64,000 nucleotides of DNA from Pseudomonadales bacterium (GCA_041682035.1 JBFKKR010000001.1:2792-66791), one strand, 5' to 3'; positions 2,455-59,343 are shown, numbered from the stretch's first letter. Numbers and translations are program-made. Notes: generated from the letters alone by a model not told the origin.

Positions 2455-4053
<1,599 letters not shown>

Positions 4054-4075
4054 GCCTGCAGGGAGGAATTCGATC

Positions 4076-4510
4076 ATGATGTCCAACCCCACCAACCGCC
4101 TGACGCAGGGCCAGTTCAGCTTCCTGCCGGACCTCACCGACGCGGAGATCAGCCTGCAGATCGAGTACGGGCTGGAAAAGGGCTATGCATGGAGCGTGGA
4201 GTACACCGACGATCCCCACCCGCGCAATACCTACTGGGAGATGTTCGGCAACCCGATGTTCGACCTGCGCGACGCCGCCGGCGTGCTGATGGAGGTGAAC
4301 AACTGCCGCAAGACGTTCCCGGACCATTACATCCGACTGATGGCATTCGACTCCACGCGCGGCATCGAGTCCATCGCCATGAGCTTCATCGTCAACCGGC
4401 CGGCGGCGGAACCGGGCTTCCACCTGCAGCGGCAGGAGATCGACGGCCGCCGCATGCGTTACACGACGCGCGGTTACGCGGCGGAGAAACCGGAAGGCTC
4501 GCGGTATTGA
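4076..4510 (+). CDS. cbbS: RuBisCO small subunit (red-type, with C-terminal extension)
   Basis: GGGAGGA lies 8 nt upstream of the ATG. The product is [22 protein letters not shown]...[11 protein letters not shown]. It starts 22 nt after the cbbL stop. Confidence 0.95.
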
Positions 4511-4514
4511 GTGG

Positions 4515-4548
4515 CCGGCGCGCCGCCTGATTCTCGCGCGGTTTTTTT
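4515..4548 (+). terminator. Hairpin plus T7 tract after cbbS (possible partial terminator/attenuator within the cbb operon)
   Basis: CCGGCGCG...CGCGCGG stem with one bulge, followed by TTTTTTT (4542-4548). Confidence 0.5.
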
Positions 4549-4645
4549 GTAGGTAAGGCTTTCGCCTTACGCGCGCCAGCCTTTGCGCATGGTTGTAGGT
4601 AAGGCTTAAGCCTTACAGGCGCGCCGGACTGAAGTCTGGCCTACA
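4548..4645. repeat. Three REP-like hairpin elements; the last two are inverted and share a GGCGCGCC core (REPIN-like)
   Basis: TGTAGGTAAGGCTTTCGCCTTACGCGCGCC (4548-4577) and TGTAGGTAAGGCTTAAGCCTTACAGGCGCGCC (4594-4625) are in the forward orientation. The reverse complement of 4618-4645 reads TGTAGGCCAGACTTCAGTCCGGCGCGCC. Confidence 0.75.
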
Positions 4646-4679
4646 TTCTGATCCACAGGTTCAGGGGAACGGAAACCGT

Positions 4680-5600
4680 ATGACCGAACCACAGCCCATC
4701 AAGCCCGAAACCGTGGACCTGCAGCAACTGCTGCAGGAGTCCAACGTGAGCGAGGTGCTCAACCAGCTCGATGAGGAGCTGGTGGGCCTGGCGCCCGTAA
4801 AACGCCGCATCCGCGAGATCGCGGCGTTCCTGCTGGTGAGCAAGGCGCGGCAGCAGATGGGCCTGGAAGCGGACCCGCCGTCGCTGCACATGTGTTTCAC
4901 CGGCAACCCCGGCACCGGCAAGACCACCGTCGCCATGCGCATGGCGGAGATCCTGCACCGGCTCGGCTACGTGCGGAAGGGGCATGTCGTGGCGGTCACG
5001 CGCGACGACCTGGTCGGGCAGTACATCGGCCACACCGCGCCGAAGACCAAGGAGGTCCTGAAGAAGGCGATGGGCGGGGTACTGTTCATCGACGAGGCCT
5101 ATTACCTCTACCGGCCGGAGAACGAGCGCGATTACGGGCAGGAGGCGATCGAGATCCTGCTGCAGGTGATGGAGAACCAGCGCGACGACCTCGTGGTGAT
5201 CCTCGCCGGCTACGCCGACCGCATGGCGACATTCTTCTCCGCCAACCCCGGCATGGCCTCGCGCATCGCGCACAATCTCGACTTCCCGGACTACTCGCCG
5301 GACGAGCTGATGCAGATCACGAAGCTGATGCTGGAGCAGCAGCACTACCGGCTTTCCGGGGGCGCCGCCACCGCGATGCGCGAGTACATCGTCAAGCGCA
5401 TGCGGCAACCGAATTTCGCCAATGCCCGCTCCATCCGCAACGCCCTGGATCGTGCCAGGCTGCGGCACGCCAACCGCCTGTTCGAGCAGGCCGAGCAGGG
5501 CGTCCGGCTGGATGCGGACGCGCTCAGCGAACTGGGCGAGGCGGACCTGCGCGCATCGCGCGTCTTCAGCCAGGACACGGCAGAGCAGAACAATGAATAA
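4680..5600 (+). CDS. cbbX: CbbX, AAA+ red-type RuBisCO activase
   Basis: Walker [12 protein letters not shown] and Walker [12 protein letters not shown]. The gene follows cbbLS. Confidence 0.95.
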
Positions 5601-5610
5601 GGAAATCTCC

Positions 5611-6690
5611 ATGAGCCTATACAGCGGCCGCACCACGCTTTCCAAGTTCGTGATCGAGCATCTCGGCGGCGGGTCGCGCCCGGACCAGCTGGCCTCCCTG
5701 CTCATCGACGTGGCCGCGGCCGTGAAGACCATCGCCGCGATCACCGGCAAGGGCGCGCTCGGCGGGCTGCATGCCTTCCTGGGCACCGAGAACGTGCACG
5801 GCGACGACCAGAAACGTCTCGATGTGATGGCCAACGCGATCTTCATCGATCACTGCAGCTGGGGCGGCCCGGTGGCCGGCATGCTCTCGGCGGAGAACGA
5901 GGAGCCGATTCCGGTGGCCGGCGACCTGATCCGCGGCCGTTACCTGCTGATGTTCGACCCGCTGGACGGCACCAACAACATCGAGCTGAACGCGTCGGTC
6001 GGCTCGATCTTCTCGGTGGTCGAATACACCGGCAGCGGGCGCCCGGAGAAAGCGGACTTCCTGCAGCCCGGCAACCGCCAGGTCGCCGCCGGCTACGCCA
6101 TCTTCGGGCCCGCCACCATGCTGGTGCTCACCGCCGGCCGCGGCACGCACGGATTCACGCTGGACCGCGAGGTCGGCAACTTCGTGCTGACCCATCCCGA
6201 CCTGCAGATCGCGCCGGAGACCAATGATCTCGCCATCAATTCCTGCAACGAAAGATTCTGGGAGGCGCCCATCCACCGCTACGTCAGCGAGTGCAAGGAG
6301 GGCAGCACCGGCATCCGCGGCAAGGATTTCAACATGCACTGGATCGCGTCCATGGTGGCGGACGTGCACCGCATCCTGATGCGTGGCGGCGTGTTCATGC
6401 ACCCGCGTGACGACCGTGGCGGACGGCACCAGGGACGCCAGCGTCACCTCTACGAGGCCAGCCCGATGGCATTCATCGTCGAGCAGGCCGGCGGCGCCGC
6501 CAGCACCGGCCGGCAGCGGCTGCTCGAGGTCACGCCGGGCGACCTGCACGACCCCATTCCCGTCATTCTCGGTTCCCGGCAGGAAATCGAGCGTATCGAG
6601 CAGTACCACGCCAGCTACGATGCGGGCTCGGACAAGCCGTTCCAGTCGCCCCTGTTCAACGAGCGGTCCCTCTACCGCGCGGACGCCTGA
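5611..6690 (+). CDS. fbp: Fructose-1,6-bisphosphatase class I (cbb-operon copy)
   Basis: Internal ATG 10 nt after the cbbX stop, preceded by AAGGA. Product MSLYSGRTTLSKFVIEH...FDPLDGTNNIE...YEASPMAFIVEQAGG. Confidence 0.93.
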   Translation: MSLYSGRTTLSKFVIEHLGGGSRPDQLASLLIDVAAAVKTIAAITGKGALGGLHAFLGTENVHGDDQKRLDVMANAIFIDHCSWGGPVAGMLSAENEEPIPVAGDLIRGRYLLMFDPLDGTNNIELNASVGSIFSVVEYTGSGRPEKADFLQPGNRQVAAGYAIFGPATMLVLTAGRGTHGFTLDREVGNFVLTHPDLQIAPETNDLAINSCNERFWEAPIHRYVSECKEGSTGIRGKDFNMHWIASMVADVHRILMRGGVFMHPRDDRGGRHQGRQRHLYEASPMAFIVEQAGGAASTGRQRLLEVTPGDLHDPIPVILGSRQEIERIEQYHASYDAGSDKPFQSPLFNERSLYRADA

Positions 6691-6734
6691 ACGCACTGAT
6701 CGCAACCGCCACGGCCCAGCCACGGAAAGACCCG

Positions 6735-7610
6735 ATGTCCACCAAGCACCCGATCATCGCCGTCACCGGTTCCTCCGGCGCCGGCACCTCCACCGTCATG
6801 CGCAGCTTCGAGCACATCTTCCGCCGCGAGGGCATCCGCGCCGGCATCATCGAGGGCGACGCGTATCATCGCTACGACCGCAACGCGATGCGCAAGGCCG
6901 TTGAGGACGCGATGCGCGCCGGTAATTTCCACCTCAGCCACTTCGGCCCGGAAACCAACCTGCTCGCGGAGCTGGAAGCAAGCTTCAGCACCTACGCGGA
7001 GACCGGCACCTGCCGGACCCGCACCTACCTGCACAATGCCGAGGAAGCCGAACCGTTCGGGCAGGAGCCCGGCACGTTCTCGCCCTGGCGGGAACTCGAG
7101 TCCGATACCGACCTGCTCTTCTACGAGGGGCTGCACGGCGCCTACGCCGACAGCGAGATCAACGTTGCCCGCCACGTCGACCTGATGATCGGCGTGGTGC
7201 CGATCATCAACCTGGAGTGGATCCAGAAGCTGCACCGGGACCAGAACATCCGCGGCTACTCGCAGGAGGCGGTGGTCGACACCATCCTGCGCCGCATGCC
7301 CGACTACGTGAACCACATGTGCCCGCAGTTCTCGCGCACGCACATCAATTTCCAGCGCGTGCCATCGGTCGACACGTCCAACCCGTTCATCGCCAAGGAT
7401 GTGCCGAACGCGGACGAGAGCATGGTCATCATCCGCTTCGCGAACCCGCGCGGCATCGACTTCCCCTACCTGCTGTCGATGCTGCAGAACTCCTGGATGA
7501 GCCGCCCGAACAACATCGTGATCCCGGGCGGCAAGATGGGCGTGGCGCTGCAGCTGATCCTGACGCCGATGATCCTGCGGCTGGTGGACCAGAAGAAACG
7601 CGCTGCATAA
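6735..7610 (+). CDS. prk: Phosphoribulokinase
   Basis: MSTKHPIIAVTGSSGAGTSTV P-loop. The length and sequence are typical of bacterial PRK, and it is the last gene of the cbb operon. Confidence 0.95.
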   Translation: MSTKHPIIAVTGSSGAGTSTVMRSFEHIFRREGIRAGIIEGDAYHRYDRNAMRKAVEDAMRAGNFHLSHFGPETNLLAELEASFSTYAETGTCRTRTYLHNAEEAEPFGQEPGTFSPWRELESDTDLLFYEGLHGAYADSEINVARHVDLMIGVVPIINLEWIQKLHRDQNIRGYSQEAVVDTILRRMPDYVNHMCPQFSRTHINFQRVPSVDTSNPFIAKDVPNADESMVIIRFANPRGIDFPYLLSMLQNSWMSRPNNIVIPGGKMGVALQLILTPMILRLVDQKKRAA

Positions 7611-10267: not shown

Positions 10268-10450
10268 AGCGGTGCCCGGCAGGCGGGGCGGTGAACGGCG
10301 TGGCGCCAGGGCGTCAGCCAACATGATGAATATGCCTCTACGGATGCCTGTATTACACTTCATGGGGGCATGTTCGTGCACCAAATGAACGGCTCTGCCG
10401 TCTGGAACGTAAAATGCGCATCTCGAAATCCCTGGCTGGTCTGATCGGTA

Positions 10451-14464
<4,014 letters not shown>

Positions 14465-51585: not shown

Positions 51586-52587
51586 TCAGCCGCCGAGAAT
51601 CTGCGCCACGGCGGGCGAGCGGTAGAACCCTTCCAGCCCCTCGCGCACCATCTCCTCCAGCAGTCCGCGCTCGCGCAACATCCCGATGACGGGCGGCGCG
51701 AATTGCATGGCCTCGGCCAGCATCATGTCCGGGGTGACGCCGATCTCGGCAAGCAGGTCGCGCAGGCTGGTCTCGCCGTACTTGGCGAAGAAGGTGTCGA
51801 TCCCGACGTCGATCATGTTGCGGAACAGGCGCGTGCCGCGCAGGTGCTGGAAGTACTCGTAGCCGATCACGAAGAATTCCTCGACGTCGCGCGTCCCCAG
51901 GTAACTGCGGAAATCCGCCACCGCCCGCTGCTTGTTGTCGTCCCAGAGATCCAGCAGCACCTCGCGAAAATGTTCCGACTCGACCGCCGCCAGGAACTGC
52001 TCCTGGCTGGCCTTCAGGCGCGCCTGTGTGCCCTTCTGGATGAAACTGCGCAGCATCTCCTCGAGTTCCTCGCCCAGTTCCGGCCGTGCCCGGCGCGACA
52101 GCGCCCGGCCCATGCGCGCGGCGGACTTCGAACCGGGGAAGCGCAGGCGCGCGACGAAATCGCGGATGCCCGCGTAGAGCAGACCCGAAATCACTTCCGA
52201 GTAGATGGGGTTGGACACCGACTCGATCACCAGCGCGCGGTAGATCTTGTCCAGTTCCAGCGTCTTGTCGAGGAACTCCTCCAGGTGCGCGTCCGGCACC
52301 AGTTCGTTGAGCGTCGTCCGGTCCAGTGCCTTGTGGCGGTAGATGCGCCGGGCCACGTCGCCGACGAGTTCCGGGACGGCGCCGCCCAGCTGCATGTCGA
52401 TGGCGTAACGATGCGCGGTCTGCTTGATCTGGGCCGGGGTCACGGCCTCGTTCAGGGTGATGTCGGCGGCGCGCTCGAGAAATCGCGCGATGCCGGCGGT
52501 GAAGCGGGGCTGCAGCCGTTCGGACTGCAATTCCGCGAGCACGTAGTCCACGTGCGCCTGCAGCAATGCTTCTGCGGTCGGGTGCAT
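51586..52587 (-). CDS. Hypothetical cytoplasmic protein
   Basis: ATG at 52587, 7 nt after GGAGG. 333 aa, helical-looking, with codon usage that looks coding. I recognise no motif. Confidence 0.68.
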   Translation of the reverse strand: MHPTAEALLQAHVDYVLAELQSERLQPRFTAGIARFLERAADITLNEAVTPAQIKQTAHRYAIDMQLGGAVPELVGDVARRIYRHKALDRTTLNELVPDAHLEEFLDKTLELDKIYRALVIESVSNPIYSEVISGLLYAGIRDFVARLRFPGSKSAARMGRALSRRARPELGEELEEMLRSFIQKGTQARLKASQEQFLAAVESEHFREVLLDLWDDNKQRAVADFRSYLGTRDVEEFFVIGYEYFQHLRGTRLFRNMIDVGIDTFFAKYGETSLRDLLAEIGVTPDMMLAEAMQFAPPVIGMLRERGLLEEMVREGLEGFYRSPAVAQILGG

Positions 52588-52688
52588 GCGAAACCTCCAG
52601 CCGGTCTTGGGGTCGGCAAGTAACACCTCGCCCGCCCATTTCGCCCGGTCAGCGTACCAGACTTCCCTCCGTACTCCAGAAACGCGGT

Positions 52689-52718
52689 GGCGCGGGGTGC
52701 CTGGCTGCACCCCGCGCC
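52689..52718 (-). terminator. 12-bp GC hairpin downstream of the desaturase gene
   Basis: GGCGCGGGGTGC-ctggc-(t)GCACCCCGCGCC. It is followed by a short T-containing tract on either strand (weak U-tract). Confidence 0.45.
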
Positions 52719-52735
52719 CGTTTCGATCCGGCCGG

Positions 52736-53821
52736 TCAGGCCGCGGTCAGCGCCGGCGTGCCACTGCCCGGCAACGACAGGCGGAAGATGCGCCGCACCA
52801 CGGTGCCGAACTGCCGCGTCAGCGGACCCTTGTTGTAGGGCAGGCCGTAACGCAGGCAGATTTCCTGCACCTCCTCGGAGATCTCGGCGTACCGGTGTGC
52901 CGGCAGCGCCGGGAACAGGTGGTGCTCGATCTGGTGGCTGAGGTTGCCGCTCATCACGTGAAACAGCTTCCCGCCGGTCAGGTTGGCCGAACCGAGCAAC
53001 TGGCGGTAGTACCAGTGGCCACGCGTCTCGTTCTCCAGCACCGACTTGTGGAACTGCTGCACGCCATCCGGGAAGTGGCCACAGAAGATGATGGTGTAGG
53101 ACCACAGGTTCCGCACGAGGTTGGCGACCAGGTTGCCGGTGAAGACGTAGAGGAAGAACGGGCCGGCCAGCAGCGGGAACAGCACGTAATCCTTCAGCGT
53201 CTGGCCGCGCGTCTTGCGCCAGATGCCCTTCGCGATGTGCCTGACATCCTTCCAGGTGCGCTCGCCGCTCGCAAGCCGCTCGGTTTCCAGGTCGTGCAGG
53301 GCCACGCCGTACTGGAAGAAAACCGCCAGCAGGAAGGCGTACACCGGGTTGCCGAGATAGTACGGCCGCCATGGCTCCTCGTCCGACATGCGCAGTACGC
53401 CGTAGCCGATGTCACGATCCACGTCCTGCACGTTGGTATAGGTGTGGTGCATGTAGTTGTGCGAGTGCTTCCACTGGTCCCCCGGGCAGGCGGTGTCCCA
53501 GTCGAAGTTTTTCGAGCTGAGCGCCGGGTCCTGCGCGAAGTCGTACTGGCCATGCATGATGTTGTGGCCGATCTCCATGTTGTCGAGGATCTTCGAAGCG
53601 GAGAGCGCCGTCACACCGGCCACCCAGGCCGGCGGGAAGAAGCCGAGCATGAGCAGGCCGCGCCCGGTGACTTCCAGCGCGCGCTGCGCCCGGATCACCT
53701 TGCGGATGTACTGCACGTCACGGTCGCCGAGGTCGGCCATGACGCGAACACGGATGGCGTCCATTTCCTTCCCGAAGGATTCCAGCTGCTCTTCGTTGAG
53801 CACAGGTACTGCGTTAGACAT
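52736..53821 (-). CDS. desB: Membrane fatty-acid (acyl-CoA) desaturase, DesB-like
   Basis: Three His boxes: HNIMHG, HNYMHH, HQIEHH. It follows a reductase gene and faces a divergent TetR gene, as in the P. aeruginosa desT/desCB locus. Confidence 0.85.
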   Translation of the reverse strand: MSNAVPVLNEEQLESFGKEMDAIRVRVMADLGDRDVQYIRKVIRAQRALEVTGRGLLMLGFFPPAWVAGVTALSASKILDNMEIGHNIMHGQYDFAQDPALSSKNFDWDTACPGDQWKHSHNYMHHTYTNVQDVDRDIGYGVLRMSDEEPWRPYYLGNPVYAFLLAVFFQYGVALHDLETERLASGERTWKDVRHIAKGIWRKTRGQTLKDYVLFPLLAGPFFLYVFTGNLVANLVRNLWSYTIIFCGHFPDGVQQFHKSVLENETRGHWYYRQLLGSANLTGGKLFHVMSGNLSHQIEHHLFPALPAHRYAEISEEVQEICLRYGLPYNKGPLTRQFGTVVRRIFRLSLPGSGTPALTAA

Positions 53822-53850
53822 GGTTGGTTACTCCTGGTTTACCTTGTGAA

Positions 53851-55011
53851 TCAAATGTCGAGCGTGACGGTGCCGACGGGCACGCTCACGCAGATGCGAA
53901 TGTCTTCGTTGGCCTCGGTGGAGATCTCACCGGTCTGCAGGTTACGCACGGCGCCGGATACCTTCCGACAGGTGCAGGTGCTGCAGATGCCCATCCGGCA
54001 ACCGGACTGGGGCTGCAGGCCGGCGGCTTCCGCCTGTTCCAGGATGTTGCGGCCATCGTTCGGGACGAAGCGTTCGCTGCGCGCGAACTGCACGTCGCCC
54101 TCGACCGTGTCACCGGCCGGAACCGGGTGGCTCTGCGCGGTGAAGAACTCCTTGTGGAGGCGCTCCGGGATACCGGCCTCGCACCACACCTGGACCACCT
54201 TCTCCATCAGCCCGGGCGGACCACAGAGGAAGGTCTCGGCCGCGGCGAAGTCGGGGATCAGGCTGTGCAGCTGGTCGGCGCTGAAGAAACCGAAGGCCTC
54301 GCCGACGCCCGCCTGCTCCGTGTAGACGCGGATCAGGTCGATGTTGTCGTGCGCATCGGCAATCTGCTTCAGCTCCTCGTTGTAGATGACGTCCTGGTCG
54401 CTCAGCGCGTAATGGAGGAACGTGATCTGTCCCTGGTGCCCTTCATCGACCAGCGTGCGCAGCATGGACATCACCGGGGTGATGCCGCTGCCACCGCTGA
54501 CCAGCAGAACCCGCCCGGGGCGTCGCGACGGCATCCAGAACTCACCCTGTGCCTGCGACAGGCCGACGGTCATGCCCGGACGCGCCTTGGCGAACAGGTG
54601 ACGGGAGACGTAGCCCCACGCATGGGCCTTGACCGTCAGTTCGATCTGCCCGTCGGCACGATGCACCGAGTTGGCAGGCGAGTAGCAGCGCGTGCGCCGC
54701 ACTCCGTCGATCTCGACGGTGAGCTGTACGAACTGGCCGGGACGAAAACCCTGCCAGTGATGGTTGGGACGGATCGTCATGGTGACGGTGTCGGCGGTCT
54801 CGTGGCGGACGTCGGTGATCGTGCCGCGCAGGTCGCTGACGGACCAGCTCGGGTCCACCAGCTCCAGGTAGCGGTCGATGCTGTGCGGGAAGGCCAGCGC
54901 CGCCAGCAGGCGGGAGGCCATGACCGGCTGCAGCGCCTGCTGGGCGCGGACCCGGCGGTGGTTAATGCGGTTGCTTGCGTGTGCCATTTCAAAGCTCCAT
55001 GTAGTGAACAA
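53851..55011 (-). CDS. desC: Ferredoxin-NAD(P) reductase with C-terminal 2Fe-2S domain, DesC-like
   Basis: RCYSPANS FAD motif, LLVSGGSGITP NAD motif, and C-terminal CRMGICSTCTC...C cluster. Confidence 0.85.
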   Translation of the reverse strand: MFTTWSFEMAHASNRINHRRVRAQQALQPVMASRLLAALAFPHSIDRYLELVDPSWSVSDLRGTITDVRHETADTVTMTIRPNHHWQGFRPGQFVQLTVEIDGVRRTRCYSPANSVHRADGQIELTVKAHAWGYVSRHLFAKARPGMTVGLSQAQGEFWMPSRRPGRVLLVSGGSGITPVMSMLRTLVDEGHQGQITFLHYALSDQDVIYNEELKQIADAHDNIDLIRVYTEQAGVGEAFGFFSADQLHSLIPDFAAAETFLCGPPGLMEKVVQVWCEAGIPERLHKEFFTAQSHPVPAGDTVEGDVQFARSERFVPNDGRNILEQAEAAGLQPQSGCRMGICSTCTCRKVSGAVRNLQTGEISTEANEDIRICVSVPVGTVTLDI

Positions 55012-55145
55012 CTGTGCACACTATGGAGTCGAATCAATTTTATGTCAACACATGTACACTAAATAATTTATAAACTATATATATCAAGCATTTATGCAAT
55101 GTTTATGTGTGTACAATAAGTAATTCATTGCGCATGCGTGGCAGC
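55012..55145. promoter_or_regulatory. AT-rich divergent control region with repeated TGT(G)NACA(CT) half-sites (putative DesT operators)
   Basis: This is the only strongly AT-rich stretch of its size in the window. It contains AGTGAACAACTGTGCACACT (55002-55021), TGTCAACACATGTACACT and ATGTGTGTACAAT. Confidence 0.5.
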
Positions 55146-55826
55146 ATGAATACACTTGTGAACATCATGACCAAGACTGCCAGGAACCCGGATCGGCGGG
55201 TACGACGGGTTTCGCGCCGGGGCGACACCCGCCAGGACCTGTTGTCGGGCGCCCTGAAGCTGCTGGACGAGGACAAGAGCCTGGACAGCCTCTCCCTGCG
55301 CGAACTGACCCGCCATGTCGGGATCGTGCCCACCGCCTTCTACCGCCACTTCCCGGGCATGGACGAACTGGGGCTGGCGCTGGTGGAGGAGTCGTTCCGG
55401 GTCATGCGCAAGATCTTCGCCGACGTGCGCAACGACACCGGCTCCACCGACCGGATCATCGCCGGGGTGGTGAAGTCACTGGTGACGCACGCACGCAAGA
55501 ACCGGCTGCACTTCCGCTTCGTGGCCTCGGAGCGTTACGGTGGCAATCCCGGCGTACGCGAGGCGATCCGCAACGGCATGCGCCTGCTGCAGGGCGAACT
55601 GGCGCTGGAACTGGCGCGGTTCCCCTACCTCAAGGAATGGACCGCCAACGACCTGCAGATGCTCGCCGCCCTGCTGGTGAACAGCATGACCATGATTGCC
55701 GAGGAAATCCTTGAGCAGCGCGGACTGGACAAGTACGCCGAAAGGGAACTGATGGAGGTTGCGGAGAAACAGCTACGGCTGATCGTGCTGGGCATCCCTC
55801 ACTGGCGCAGCGGCGCGACGGGCTGA
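55146..55826 (+). CDS. desT: TetR-family regulator, DesT-like (start uncertain)
   Basis: HTH SLRELTRHVGIVPTAFYRHFPGMDELG. It is divergent from the desaturase operon. Confidence 0.83.
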   Translation: MNTLVNIMTKTARNPDRRVRRVSRRGDTRQDLLSGALKLLDEDKSLDSLSLRELTRHVGIVPTAFYRHFPGMDELGLALVEESFRVMRKIFADVRNDTGSTDRIIAGVVKSLVTHARKNRLHFRFVASERYGGNPGVREAIRNGMRLLQGELALELARFPYLKEWTANDLQMLAALLVNSMTMIAEEILEQRGLDKYAERELMEVAEKQLRLIVLGIPHWRSGATG

Positions 55827-56518: not shown

Positions 56519-58030
56519 GTGCCGCGCACCATCCAGACCGACGTGCTGATCATCGGGGCCGGCGTATCCGGTATCGGCGCGGCCTGCCAGCTGCGGAAGC
56601 AATGCCCCGGCCACTCGTTTCTCCTGCTCGAGCAGCGGGCGGCAATGGGCGGCACCTGGGACCTGTTCCGCTACCCCGGGGTACGCTCCGACTCGGATGT
56701 GCTCACCTTCGGGTACGACTTCCGGCCCTGGCGCGGCGATACGGTGCTGGCTGGCGGGCCGGCCATCAAGCGCTACGTCGAGGAAACCGCCCGCGAGCAT
56801 GGCGTCGCCGACAGGGTCCGCTTCGGACGCCGGGTGATCCGCGCCGACTGGGACCCGGGCGCGGCGCGCTGGCGGCTCGGCGTCAACACCGCCGACGGCG
56901 GCGAGGAGACCTACCACGCGCGCTTCGTCATCGGTTGCACCGGTTACTACGACTACGCGGCGGGCTACCGGCCCCGCTTCCCCGGGGAAGAAACCTATCG
57001 CGGCGTCATCGTGCACCCGCAGCACTGGCCCGAGGATCTCGACCATGCCGGCAGGCAGGTGGTGGTGGTGGGCAGCGGCGCCACGGCAGCGACGCTGGTG
57101 CCGGCGATGGCGGAGACGGCCGCCCGGGTCACCATGGTGCAGCGCTCACCCTCCTACGTGGTCACGCTGCCTGCCGAGGACGGGCTGTCGCGTGTCTTGC
57201 GCAAGGTCCTGCCGGAGAGCTGGGTGTACCGGTTCGCCCGCGCGCGCAACATCTGGCTGGCGCGCATGTTCTTCAGGGCCTCGCGGGCCTGGCCGGGCCT
57301 GGTGAGACGCCTCGTCCTGGCCGGTGTGCGCAGCCAGCTCGATCCGCGCATCGGCATGGAACACTTCACGCCGCGCTACCAGCCCTGGGACCAGCGTGTC
57401 TGCTTCGTGCCTGACGGCGACCTGTTCGAGGCGCTGAACAGCGGCCGGGCCGGGGTGGTGACCAGCCAGCTGGAATCGTTTACCGAAACCGGGGTGCGCT
57501 GTGCATCGGGGCAGGAAATCCCCGCGGACATCGTCGTGCTCGCCACCGGCCTCAACATCCAGATGATGGGCGGCGCGGAGATCCGCGTCGCGGGCGAGCC
57601 GGTGAACATCGCCGAAAGGCTGGTTTACAAGGCCTGCATGCTGGAAGGCATCCCCAACGCCGCCATGGTGTTCGGCTACACCAACGCCACCTGGACACTC
57701 AAGGTGAACATCGCCTGCGCCTATATCTGCCGGCTGCTCAACCACATGCAGGACGCCGGCCATGACTGGGCCTGCCCGGCGGAGAACCACGGCATCGCCA
57801 GCGGCGAGTCGGTGTTCGGATCGCTGATGTCCGGCTATGTCCGCCGCGCCGCGCAGATCCTGCCGCGCCAGGGCACGGTGCCACCCTGGCGGGTGCAACA
57901 CGATTTCCCGCGCGACCGGCGCATGCTGCTGAAAGACCGCATCGAGGACGGCGTACTCCGTTTCGGCGTCGCGCCGCAGAAGGATCACGCCACGGTGCTG
58001 GCGCCGCCCGCGTCGGAACCAGTACCATGA
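56519..58030 (+). CDS. Type I Baeyer-Villiger / flavin monooxygenase (EthA-like)
   Basis: GTG start. GAGVSGIG FAD motif, the fingerprint YRGVIVHPQHWP, and a second Rossmann motif VVVVGSGATA. Confidence 0.87.
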   Translation: MPRTIQTDVLIIGAGVSGIGAACQLRKQCPGHSFLLLEQRAAMGGTWDLFRYPGVRSDSDVLTFGYDFRPWRGDTVLAGGPAIKRYVEETAREHGVADRVRFGRRVIRADWDPGAARWRLGVNTADGGEETYHARFVIGCTGYYDYAAGYRPRFPGEETYRGVIVHPQHWPEDLDHAGRQVVVVGSGATAATLVPAMAETAARVTMVQRSPSYVVTLPAEDGLSRVLRKVLPESWVYRFARARNIWLARMFFRASRAWPGLVRRLVLAGVRSQLDPRIGMEHFTPRYQPWDQRVCFVPDGDLFEALNSGRAGVVTSQLESFTETGVRCASGQEIPADIVVLATGLNIQMMGGAEIRVAGEPVNIAERLVYKACMLEGIPNAAMVFGYTNATWTLKVNIACAYICRLLNHMQDAGHDWACPAENHGIASGESVFGSLMSGYVRRAAQILPRQGTVPPWRVQHDFPRDRRMLLKDRIEDGVLRFGVAPQKDHATVLAPPASEPVP

Positions 58031-58068
58031 GCGCCATCGAGAAATTCGCCTGACAGGAGCGTGTCTGC

Positions 58069-58368
58069 ATGGCAAACGAGGGCTACCACGAGCCGATCGA
58101 GGAACTGAGCGACGAGACGCGGGACATGCACCGCGCCATCAGCTCGCTGATGGAGGAACTGGAGGCGGTCGACTGGTACAACCAGCGCGTGGATGCGTGC
58201 AAGGATGCCGCCCTGAAATCGATCCTGGAACACAACCGGGATGAGGAAAAGGAACACGCGGCCATGGTGCTGGAGTGGATCCGCCGCAAGGACCCGAGGT
58301 TCGATCACGAACTGCGCGACTTCCTGTTCACCGACAAGCCCATCACGCACCCGCACGACCACGACTGA
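58069..58368 (+). CDS. Encapsulated-ferritin-like (EncFtn) protein lacking a C-terminal targeting extension
   Basis: CAGGAG RBS. HEPIEELSDETRDMHRAISSLMEELEAVDWYNQRVDACKD...HNRDEEKEHAAMVLEWIRR matches my recollection of the EncFtn core, including the E/Y/ExxH ferroxidase residues. The protein ends 99 aa in, at ...THPHDHD. Confidence 0.82.
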   Translation: MANEGYHEPIEELSDETRDMHRAISSLMEELEAVDWYNQRVDACKDAALKSILEHNRDEEKEHAAMVLEWIRRKDPRFDHELRDFLFTDKPITHPHDHD

Positions 58369-58374
58369 ACGCGG

Positions 58375-59343
58375 TCAGGAACGCCGCGACAGCCGTTGCG
58401 GCAGCTCCAGGATCATCTGCTTCAGTTCCGGCTGGTTGACCCGCTCGGCGGCGGTGGCGACCGGCAGCCACTGCCGGGCCCGGTGCTGCTCCTCCCACTC
58501 CGCCTCCTGCAGCACGCGCTGCACCTGCATCGGGAACAGCGTCACGGTACAGCGCGCACCCCACTTGTCGATTCCGTAGCTGCCCAGTTCCATGTCGAGT
58601 ACCCGGCCGGTCACGCCCGCCTCCTCCAGCGCCTCCTCCGCGGCTGACTCCTGCGGCGTGCGGCCGGGTCCGCAAACACCCTTGGGCACCATCCAGCTGT
58701 CGCGCTGGCTGGACTGGATGACGAGCACCTCGAACCGGCCCTTCCGCTCGCGGTAGGGAATCACGCCGGACTGCGTGTAGTAATAGGCGGGTCGTTTCCG
58801 GCCTTCCTTCCCGTCCGGCGGCGGGTAGGGGAATCGCTTCGGCAGCTCGCGTCCCGACACCAACCGGCGGTACTGGCTGTTGCCCGGCTGTAGCGCATCC
58901 AGGGGGTCTTCGGTCTGCAGGTGCGCGAGCGTGGCCCGGCGCAGGAGCCTGCCCTTCGCGGCGAGTTCCCGGTGCGGTTGCGCGAGGTGGCGGACCAGAT
59001 CGTCGCAGGCCGGCCGGTGCAGCACCACCAGCACGCGCGCAGCATCCGCGGCACGCTCCGCCAGGACGGCGAGCACCTCATCCAGCCCACCCCGGTAAAG
59101 CCGCTCATCCTCACGGATCATCGCGGCGGAACGGTCCATGGCCATGCAGCAATGCTCGGCGGACACCAGCGCCCGTTCGGCGGGAGAGGTCAGCACCAGG
59201 TCCGGCCGCAGTTCCTGCTGCCACAACCACACGCCAATGCGTTGCACGGCACGCTCACCGCGGTTGTGCAGGGGCATCTCGGCATGCTCCAGTCCCGGCA
59301 GGGTCATGGCCCGGCCGTGCCGCATCACCAGCAGGTCACGCAT
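58375..59343 (-). CDS. Fusion: SixA-like histidine phosphatase (N) + Nudix hydrolase (C)
   Basis: The RHG motif LLVMRHGRA and the second His in VVLHRP form the N-terminal domain. The Nudix box is PKGVCGPGRTPQESAAEEALEEAGV. Confidence 0.8.
   Translation of the reverse strand: MRDLLVMRHGRAMTLPGLEHAEMPLHNRGERAVQRIGVWLWQQELRPDLVLTSPAERALVSAEHCCMAMDRSAAMIREDERLYRGGLDEVLAVLAERAADAARVLVVLHRPACDDLVRHLAQPHRELAAKGRLLRRATLAHLQTEDPLDALQPGNSQYRRLVSGRELPKRFPYPPPDGKEGRKRPAYYYTQSGVIPYRERKGRFEVLVIQSSQRDSWMVPKGVCGPGRTPQESAAEEALEEAGVTGRVLDMELGSYGIDKWGARCTVTLFPMQVQRVLQEAEWEEQHRARQWLPVATAAERVNQPELKQMILELPQRLSRRS

Follow-up and report, generated by a model that had tools for sequence, protein, structure and literature searches.

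The gene examined herein, which lies within a 64 kb stretch of DNA from a Pseudomonadales bacterium (hereafter the window), belongs, as judged from its sequence, to the EncFtn-like family, in which it is a typical representative of the short, tag-less branch. This class has already been named, as 'Non-EncFtn' (He et al. 2016, PMC5012862) and as 's-FLP' (Eren et al. 2024, PMC11202242), and the identity of the window protein as an s-FLP is almost certain. With regard to function, we consider the chances to be close to even that it acts as a shell-independent cytoplasmic ferroxidase in the form of a free decamer; free action in the cytoplasm is favoured because there is neither a targeting peptide on the protein nor a shell gene linked to it. 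The original prediction had likewise reasoned from the missing tag and the lack of a nearby shell to a role outside of encapsulins, which would seem a sensible reading. Its view of the gene as an unusual orphan does not stand, as tail-less copies unlinked to encapsulin are the rule in a large, named subfamily. The relatives described below stem from a survey of one genome per GTDB species, in which at least 590 loci were found and the best 80 were fetched.

The open reading frame is intact, beginning with an ATG and comprising 99 codons and a stop (Table 1), and its composition is coding-like (GC3 0.87, GC2 0.32; window G+C 66.7 %). Most of the 80 homologous loci carry a GGAG-like box at a spacing comparable to that of the Shine–Dalgarno sequence in the window. 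A search of the window around the s-FLP gene revealed neither a sigma-70-like promoter nor an intrinsic terminator. The gene calls of three NCBI MAG assemblies include an identical protein, surrounded by the same flanking genes.

Table 1. The s-FLP gene, its sequence elements and its adjoining genes, with positions counted from the first nucleotide of the window
Feature	Position	Strand	Description and basis
FMO/BVMO-type flavin monooxygenase gene	56519..58030	+	Pfam FMO-like/Pyr_redox; ends 38 nt before the s-FLP ATG
Shine–Dalgarno AGGAG	58055..58059	+	Read from the sequence; 9 nt 5′ of the ATG
s-FLP/Non-EncFtn gene	58069..58368	+	99 aa and stop; EncFtn-like two-helix ferritin-like core without targeting peptide
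Helix-1 metal-ligand segment: E29/E32 (entry site), E30 (ferroxidase centre), W36, Y37	58153..58179	+	Alignment to R. rubrum EncFtn
ExxH motif E60-K61-E62-H63, with ferroxidase-centre ligands E60 and H63	58246..58257	+	Equivalent to R. rubrum Glu62/His65
Subfamily C-terminal motif LFTDKPITH, including s-FLP-specific K90 and H94	58324..58350	+	Column comparison
Five-residue His/Asp-rich extension PHDHD, a lineage-specific variant	58351..58365	+	Tail-length survey
SixA-like/NUDIX gene, convergent	58375..59343	-	NUDIX E 9e-9; SixA-like N-terminal half 35 bits, below the cutoff of 74.5

The original prediction of a 99-aa EncFtn core is borne out by the profile searches it had called for, with matches above cutoff in both cases. 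Pfam PF22277 (EncFtn-like) aligns over positions 2–85 of 85, with an E-value of 1.3e-44 and a score of 150 bits against a cutoff of 27, and NCBIfam TIGR04535 ('encapsulin-associated ferritin-like protein') reaches 140 bits against a cutoff of 125. The latter match spans only positions 1–89 of 114, such that the C-terminal part of this model is absent from the window protein, which terminates as ...LFTDKPITHPHDHD, 5 residues past the core.

The ferroxidase residues that had been predicted are all in place. In R. rubrum EncFtn, the ferroxidase centre consists of Glu32, Glu62, His65 and Tyr39, and the entry site of Glu31 and Glu34 (He et al. 2016, PMC5012862). A gap-free alignment places the former set at Glu30, Glu60, His63 and Tyr37 of the window protein, and the latter at Glu29 and Glu32, with every one of these residues present. 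For comparison we used the 80 short relatives and 22 longer homologues (117–176 aa, about 55–66 % identical), which end in ...GSLGIGSLK, ...RLTVGSL or ...LTIGSLR. Each of E29, E30, E32, W36 and Y37 is invariant across both sets, as are E60, E62 and H63; the remaining residue of the ExxH motif, K61, is invariant in the short class only.

The closest match in the PDB is NE0167 of Nitrosomonas europaea (PDB 3K6C; E 4.9e-46), with 74 of 94 residues (79 %) identical. This 95-aa protein, the prototype of the class, for which the entry contains ten chains in an apo structure, aligns without gaps from Met1, falls into the same length class, ends similarly in ...LFT(D/N)KPI(A/T)H, lacks a targeting peptide and possesses the same metal ligands. 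Differences include the five extra C-terminal residues (PHDHD) of the window protein and two substitutions, as NE0167 has Leu for Trp36 and Phe7 for His7, both of the latter residues being shared by the window protein and nearly all relatives. 3K6C, an unpublished structure, has been described as a decamer, and s-FLPs were first classed as non-encapsulated (PMC11202242); the same entry served as molecular-replacement model in He et al. 2016 (PMC5012862).

Classical EncFtn proteins (FLP-TP), exemplified by R. rubrum Rru_A0973 (PDB 5DA5) and the H. ochraceum protein (PDB 5N5F), belong to the same two-helix fold family and have the same ferroxidase-centre and entry-site residues, the R. rubrum protein being about 62 % identical to the window protein over the core. 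In contrast to the window protein, they continue into a linker of about 25–45 residues and a targeting peptide (...SLGIGSLK and similar), and an encapsulin gene is adjacent to theirs, usually directly downstream, where the window has a convergent Nudix gene. [quoted passage not shown]

As the original prediction had it, the protein, with its ...KPITHPHDHD end, has no cargo-loading peptide. A targeting peptide of the L/F-x-V/I-G-x-L type is absent both from the window protein and from each of the 80 short relatives, the usual end of which is ...KPIAH[E/K/D]. We defined subfamily-specific positions as those at least 90 % conserved in s-FLPs and shared with no more than 15 % of tagged forms. Seven positions qualify (N3, E12, N38, E81, D84, K90 and H94), and the window protein matches the consensus at all of them. 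Two of these fall within the C-terminal motif: K90 occurs in 93 % of the 80 short forms and H94 in 97 %, as against 0 % of the 22 targeting-peptide-bearing forms in either case. The His-rich HPHDHD tail, for which a metal-binding role had been suggested, is a minority variant, and the conserved feature is the single His94. Tails longer than 95 residues are found in about 11 of the 80 loci, the window included, with a His amongst the extra residues in 10; further database proteins with extended tails are P0001, P0017, P0042 and P0045.

The lack of a shell gene in the window, likewise predicted, was upheld by two approaches. When 48 selected ORFs (long and of high GC3), which together cover most of the 64 kb, were compared with Pfam, neither a Linocin_M18/encapsulin nor a phage-capsid family was returned. 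T. maritima encapsulin, the sequence of which was verified against PDB 3DKT, then served as the phmmer query for a six-frame translation of the entire window and gave nothing at E ≤ 10. This query also detects deposited Family-1 shells from Haliangium, Mycobacterium, Myxococcus, Pyrococcus and others, with E-values from 4e-58 to 3e-7. Extending the same search to ± 10 kb around the 80 s-FLP loci (1.33 Mb including the window) again revealed no Family-1 encapsulin at E ≤ 10. The survey of tail-less homologues that the original prediction had proposed thus gave 80 of 80 untagged and 0 of 80 with a Family-1 shell gene within 10 kb. At a classical EncFtn control locus (L081) the identical procedure identified an encapsulin gene directly downstream, with an E-value of 1e-58. 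The control stems from NZ_CP154629.1 of Acetoanaerobium noterae, a 2.63 Mb entry that is listed as a 'plasmid' in PLSDB with 4 annotated features and is chromosome-like; its EncFtn ends in ...GNGLNIGKMK, and the stop codon overlaps the start region of the encapsulin gene (4333–5148).

These results bear on the possibility that the s-FLP is encapsulin cargo after all, packaged by a distantly encoded shell by way of a non-canonical signal in its short tail (LFTDKPIAHE). The 10-residue tail LFTD(E/N)KPIAHE has been raised as a possible cryptic targeting signal, since a binding sequence yet to be defined might reside in this disordered segment and steric considerations would allow a short tether (PMC11202242). 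In other systems, secondary cargo is known whose genes lie apart from that of the shell (10.1101/085266), and the genome at hand was examined over 64 kb only. The known secondary cargos were, however, identified by the canonical targeting-peptide consensus (10.1101/085266), and the LFTDKPIAH segment aligns with LFTEGPITA of classical EncFtn. Because the classical counterpart lies upstream of the linker and of the real targeting peptide, the segment is to be regarded as core rather than tag. This alignment argues against the cryptic-tag idea, and would itself leave the conserved His94 unaccounted for. Together with the 80 shell-free loci and the immediate downstream shell of the control, this makes packaging improbable. 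A comparison of 12 s-FLP genera, taken from the fetched relatives and 3K6C, with the encapsulin catalogue of Andreas & Giessen is a weak and uninformative point on the same side, producing, among the entries listed, one Nitrosomonas entry only.

Turning to the distribution of the family, the best 80 of the at least 590 loci are 82–94 % identical to the window protein and derive from Alpha-, Beta-, Gamma- and Zetaproteobacteria, as well as from a few MAGs otherwise labelled. There is one copy per locus; 67 of the 80 proteins are 95 aa in length (range 94–100), and all are ATG-started. A word-indexed protein search gave at least 8,000 matches, the best 120 of which are 84–94 % identical and overwhelmingly 95 aa, whilst an exhaustive search of 50 %-identity representatives yielded 1,383 clusters for the superfamily as a whole. 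Even divergent short forms, of 93 aa and 59 % identity, retain a ...LFTDKP(L/I)AH(E/P) end. Longer database homologues of more than 85 % identity (110–176 aa) were considered as potential tagged forms and rejected, the 12 examined, of 110–161 aa, comprising nine mis-called upstream starts, two read-throughs and one internal duplication. On comparison of the C-termini of the proteins retrieved, the EncFtn-like family splits cleanly into a tagged and an untagged branch, and the window protein falls within the latter. Near-identical s-FLP genes also occur in MAGs labelled as a Halobacteria archaeon, Planctomycetota and Haliangium (L065, L047 and L001, respectively). These labels are more likely to reflect binning or label errors than cross-domain presence, because the genes are 85–94 % identical to proteobacterial copies. 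No relatives were found in viral contigs.

A further tail-less type is represented by an EncFtn-like protein of Bradyrhizobium and Rhodopseudomonas plasmids (WP_100554912.1). At 104 aa, it resembles the window protein in having neither a targeting peptide nor an encapsulin gene (within ± 4 kb); it differs in being only 43 % identical and in ending as ...LFTDGDIVEAAEKAEKKAD, with the KPIAH motif absent. One such gene, annotated as hypothetical, is found on Bradyrhizobium betae plasmid pBbPL7HG1 (L082:4001–4315); three further Bradyrhizobium/Rhodopseudomonas plasmids yield similar matches. On pBbPL7HG1 the EncFtn-like gene and mbfA, which encodes an iron exporter, are divergent, and the EncFtn-like gene is followed by one for a cytochrome b; this metal-homeostasis island also comprises a multicopper oxidase gene, and genes for metal regulators are close by. 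The plasmid protein is a second non-encapsulated branch, and one in an explicit iron/metal context.

Conservation within the s-FLPs is extreme. Pairwise amino-acid identity among the 80 relatives averages 0.87 and ranges from 75 to 97 % (minimum 0.755), with 45 of 94 columns invariant. Identity at four-fold degenerate sites has a mean of 0.36, i.e. synonymous sites are near saturation, and the GC3 of the genes varies from 0.21 to 0.96, tracking the G+C content of the locus (r = 0.94). Comparison of the coding sequences in this manner points to a long residence of s-FLPs under very strong purifying selection. Recent horizontal transfer was considered as a source of the high identity and rejected, given the four-fold-site identity of 0.36 and a GC3 that follows the G+C content of the host. 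Amongst 72,556 plasmids the s-FLP gene is nearly absent, the sole high-identity match (82 %) being partial and limited to query residues 1–62.

It was also considered that the gene might be a decaying remnant of a lost EncFtn–encapsulin operon. The missing tag and missing shell gene are in keeping with this, and nothing more is. Against it stand the intact frame, the strong ribosome-binding site, the uniform length of 95 aa and extreme purifying selection over hundreds of species, which leave the idea with virtually no credence.

Over the same columns, tagged EncFtn proteins display a mean mutual identity of 0.55, so that s-FLP sequences appear much more tightly conserved than classical ones; this comparison is biased by the choice of sets, as the short sequences are the 80 closest to the query, whereas those of the tagged set are 22 representatives of 50 % clusters. 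The identity of 58 % reported for the R. rubrum and H. ochraceum EncFtn proteins agrees in direction with looser conservation of the tagged class. Conservation so far above that of tagged proteins of the same fold and chemistry, biased as the comparison is, hints at an additional constraint beyond that expected of a simple free ferroxidase, for example one imposed by a partner or by a second function.

One may therefore ask whether the di-iron ring is put to some other use: as a peroxidase or oxidase, as a sensor of iron or redox state, or as an iron donor or chaperone docking on a conserved but unlinked partner. Such a role would better account for the near-frozen surface of the protein, with 75–97 % identity across alpha-, beta-, gamma- and zetaproteobacterial loci at saturated synonymous sites, and for the conservation of subfamily-specific residues outside of the metal sites (the seven positions listed above). 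In the same vein, the DKPxAH tail is retained in short forms of only 59 % identity (P0199 and P0202), and, on Bradyrhizobium plasmids, the more distant tail-less branch sits next to mbfA and a gene for cytochrome b. On the other hand, every ferroxidase and entry-site ligand is unchanged, as a ferroxidase requires, no partner gene is genomically linked, and burial of interfaces in a small, ring-forming protein may account for part of the conservation. We regard a different use of the ring, which is the main rival reading, as possible, if on the unlikely side.

The surroundings of the gene offer little guidance. All-against-all clustering of 4,952 ORFs from the 80 loci and the window produced no neighbour cluster present in more than 8 of the 80 loci, and none of the recurrent neighbour clusters listed contains a window gene. 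Two other large ORF clusters (41 and 38 loci) are antisense to the s-FLP gene; these apparently conserved ORFs (L001–L080) were rejected as genes, being shadow ORFs that result from extreme conservation of the sense frame. In a Pfam census of 150 immediate neighbours, 157 families were recorded, none in more than 6 proteins, with Lactamase_B the commonest at 6; NUDIX, FMO-like, ferritin and encapsulin families are absent among the 25 most frequent families shown. The orientation of neighbours is mixed: of the upstream ones, 48 of 77 share the strand of the s-FLP gene, and of the downstream ones 36 of 76. The gaps have medians of 123 and 78 nt, respectively. Fur-box-like sites upstream of s-FLP genes are no more frequent than in shuffled sequences, and the enriched upstream 7-mers are solely G+C-rich and only marginally above shuffles. 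Neither gene context nor a shared upstream motif provides any pointer to iron or oxidative stress, and the s-FLP gene is shown by these analyses to be a self-contained unit, independent of its neighbours.

The original prediction had suggested that the gene might be linked to its BVMO or Nudix neighbours. It had also described the next gene as an opposite-strand SixA–Nudix fusion, of which the strand and the NUDIX domain are confirmed, whilst the SixA-like half scores below threshold. That the s-FLP might work together with the BVMO and/or with the SixA–Nudix and Nudix genes gains some appeal from the short distance to the upstream stop codon, and no sigma-70-like promoter or terminator was found in the intergenic gap; co-transcription of BVMO and s-FLP is possible in the window genome. 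The arrangement is repeated in the three MAGs with the identical protein, but these appear to be of the same species, and BVMO adjacency is seen in none of the 80 other species. As neither gene is a recurrent neighbour in those species, and as the NUDIX and FMO-like families are not among the frequent ones of the census, a functional connection of this sort is highly improbable. The stop codons of the s-FLP (+) and SixA-like/Nudix (-) genes are just 6 nt apart (58366–58377), a spacing too short to accommodate a terminator between the genes for either transcript.

Returning to the preferred reading of a free cytoplasmic ferroxidase, a mechanism can be outlined by homology. Two-helix monomers would pair such that Glu30, Glu60, His63 and Tyr37 of two chains form a symmetric di-iron centre, and five such dimers would close into a metal-bridged annular decamer, as in 3K6C and EncFtn. 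Fe(II) would be oxidised with O2 or H2O2, limiting Fenton chemistry or peroxide damage. Isolated EncFtn decamers oxidise Fe(II) yet cannot hold the product, which precipitates without the shell (PMC5012862), in agreement with the statement in the original prediction that EncFtn alone oxidises iron and cannot store it. The Fe(III) generated by an s-FLP may be released or passed on to other acceptors instead of being stored. The flexible C-terminal ...DKPI(A/T)H tail is a candidate site for metal exit and hand-off or for contact with a partner, and the HPHDHD extension of the window protein would supply extra ligands. More broadly, s-FLPs may constitute, rather than a cargo stripped of its shell, a distinct, ancient, shell-independent proteobacterial di-iron protein in which the conserved DKPIAH tail serves as a metal hand-off or partner-docking element, a proposal that we put forward tentatively and with rather limited confidence.

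The window locus itself matters little, representing a routine member of a subfamily for which a structure has been solved, with neighbours that carry no functional signal. The class to which it belongs is of wider relevance, with at least 590 species representatives and a place amongst the tighter-conserved small proteins across proteobacterial classes. No biochemical, genetic or functional study of any s-FLP was found in the literature searched, which yielded solely the 2016 paper (in eLife) and the 2024 review cited above. If s-FLPs are free ferroxidases or iron-handling factors, the textbook list for bacterial iron detoxification (Ftn, Bfr, Dps and encapsulin) gains a component, and if they are shell-independent with a functional tail, they would represent a widespread step of cytosolic iron handling that has yet to be described. 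The contrast between s-FLPs and tagged EncFtn proteins would also bear on whether ferritin cargo or free rings arose first.

Beyond the immediate vicinity of the s-FLP gene, the window contains a second Nudix gene and an amidase gene farther downstream. Farther upstream are a small PilZ-like gene and, at 51586–55826, genes for a fatty-acid desaturase, an FAD/NAD/2Fe-2S reductase and a FabR-like regulator of the TetR type, the last in divergent orientation. The desaturase gene is directly followed by, and overlaps at the ends with, a gene (51586–52710, -) for a 374-aa protein with no match in Pfam or NCBIfam. A Calvin-cycle cluster is located at 2455–7610 (+), comprising genes for a RuBisCO large chain (PF02788 and PF00016), a CbbX-like AAA+ protein (PF00004 and AAA_lid_6), FBPase and phosphoribulokinase. 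Pfam detected no RuBisCO small-subunit family beside the large-chain gene. The presence of this cluster suggests that the host is probably capable of autotrophy. Finally, the region 10445–14464 (+) encodes a protein of 1,339 aa in which PilZ, DUF1631, GGDEF and EAL domains occur together with a long central poly-Gly/Gly-rich stretch.
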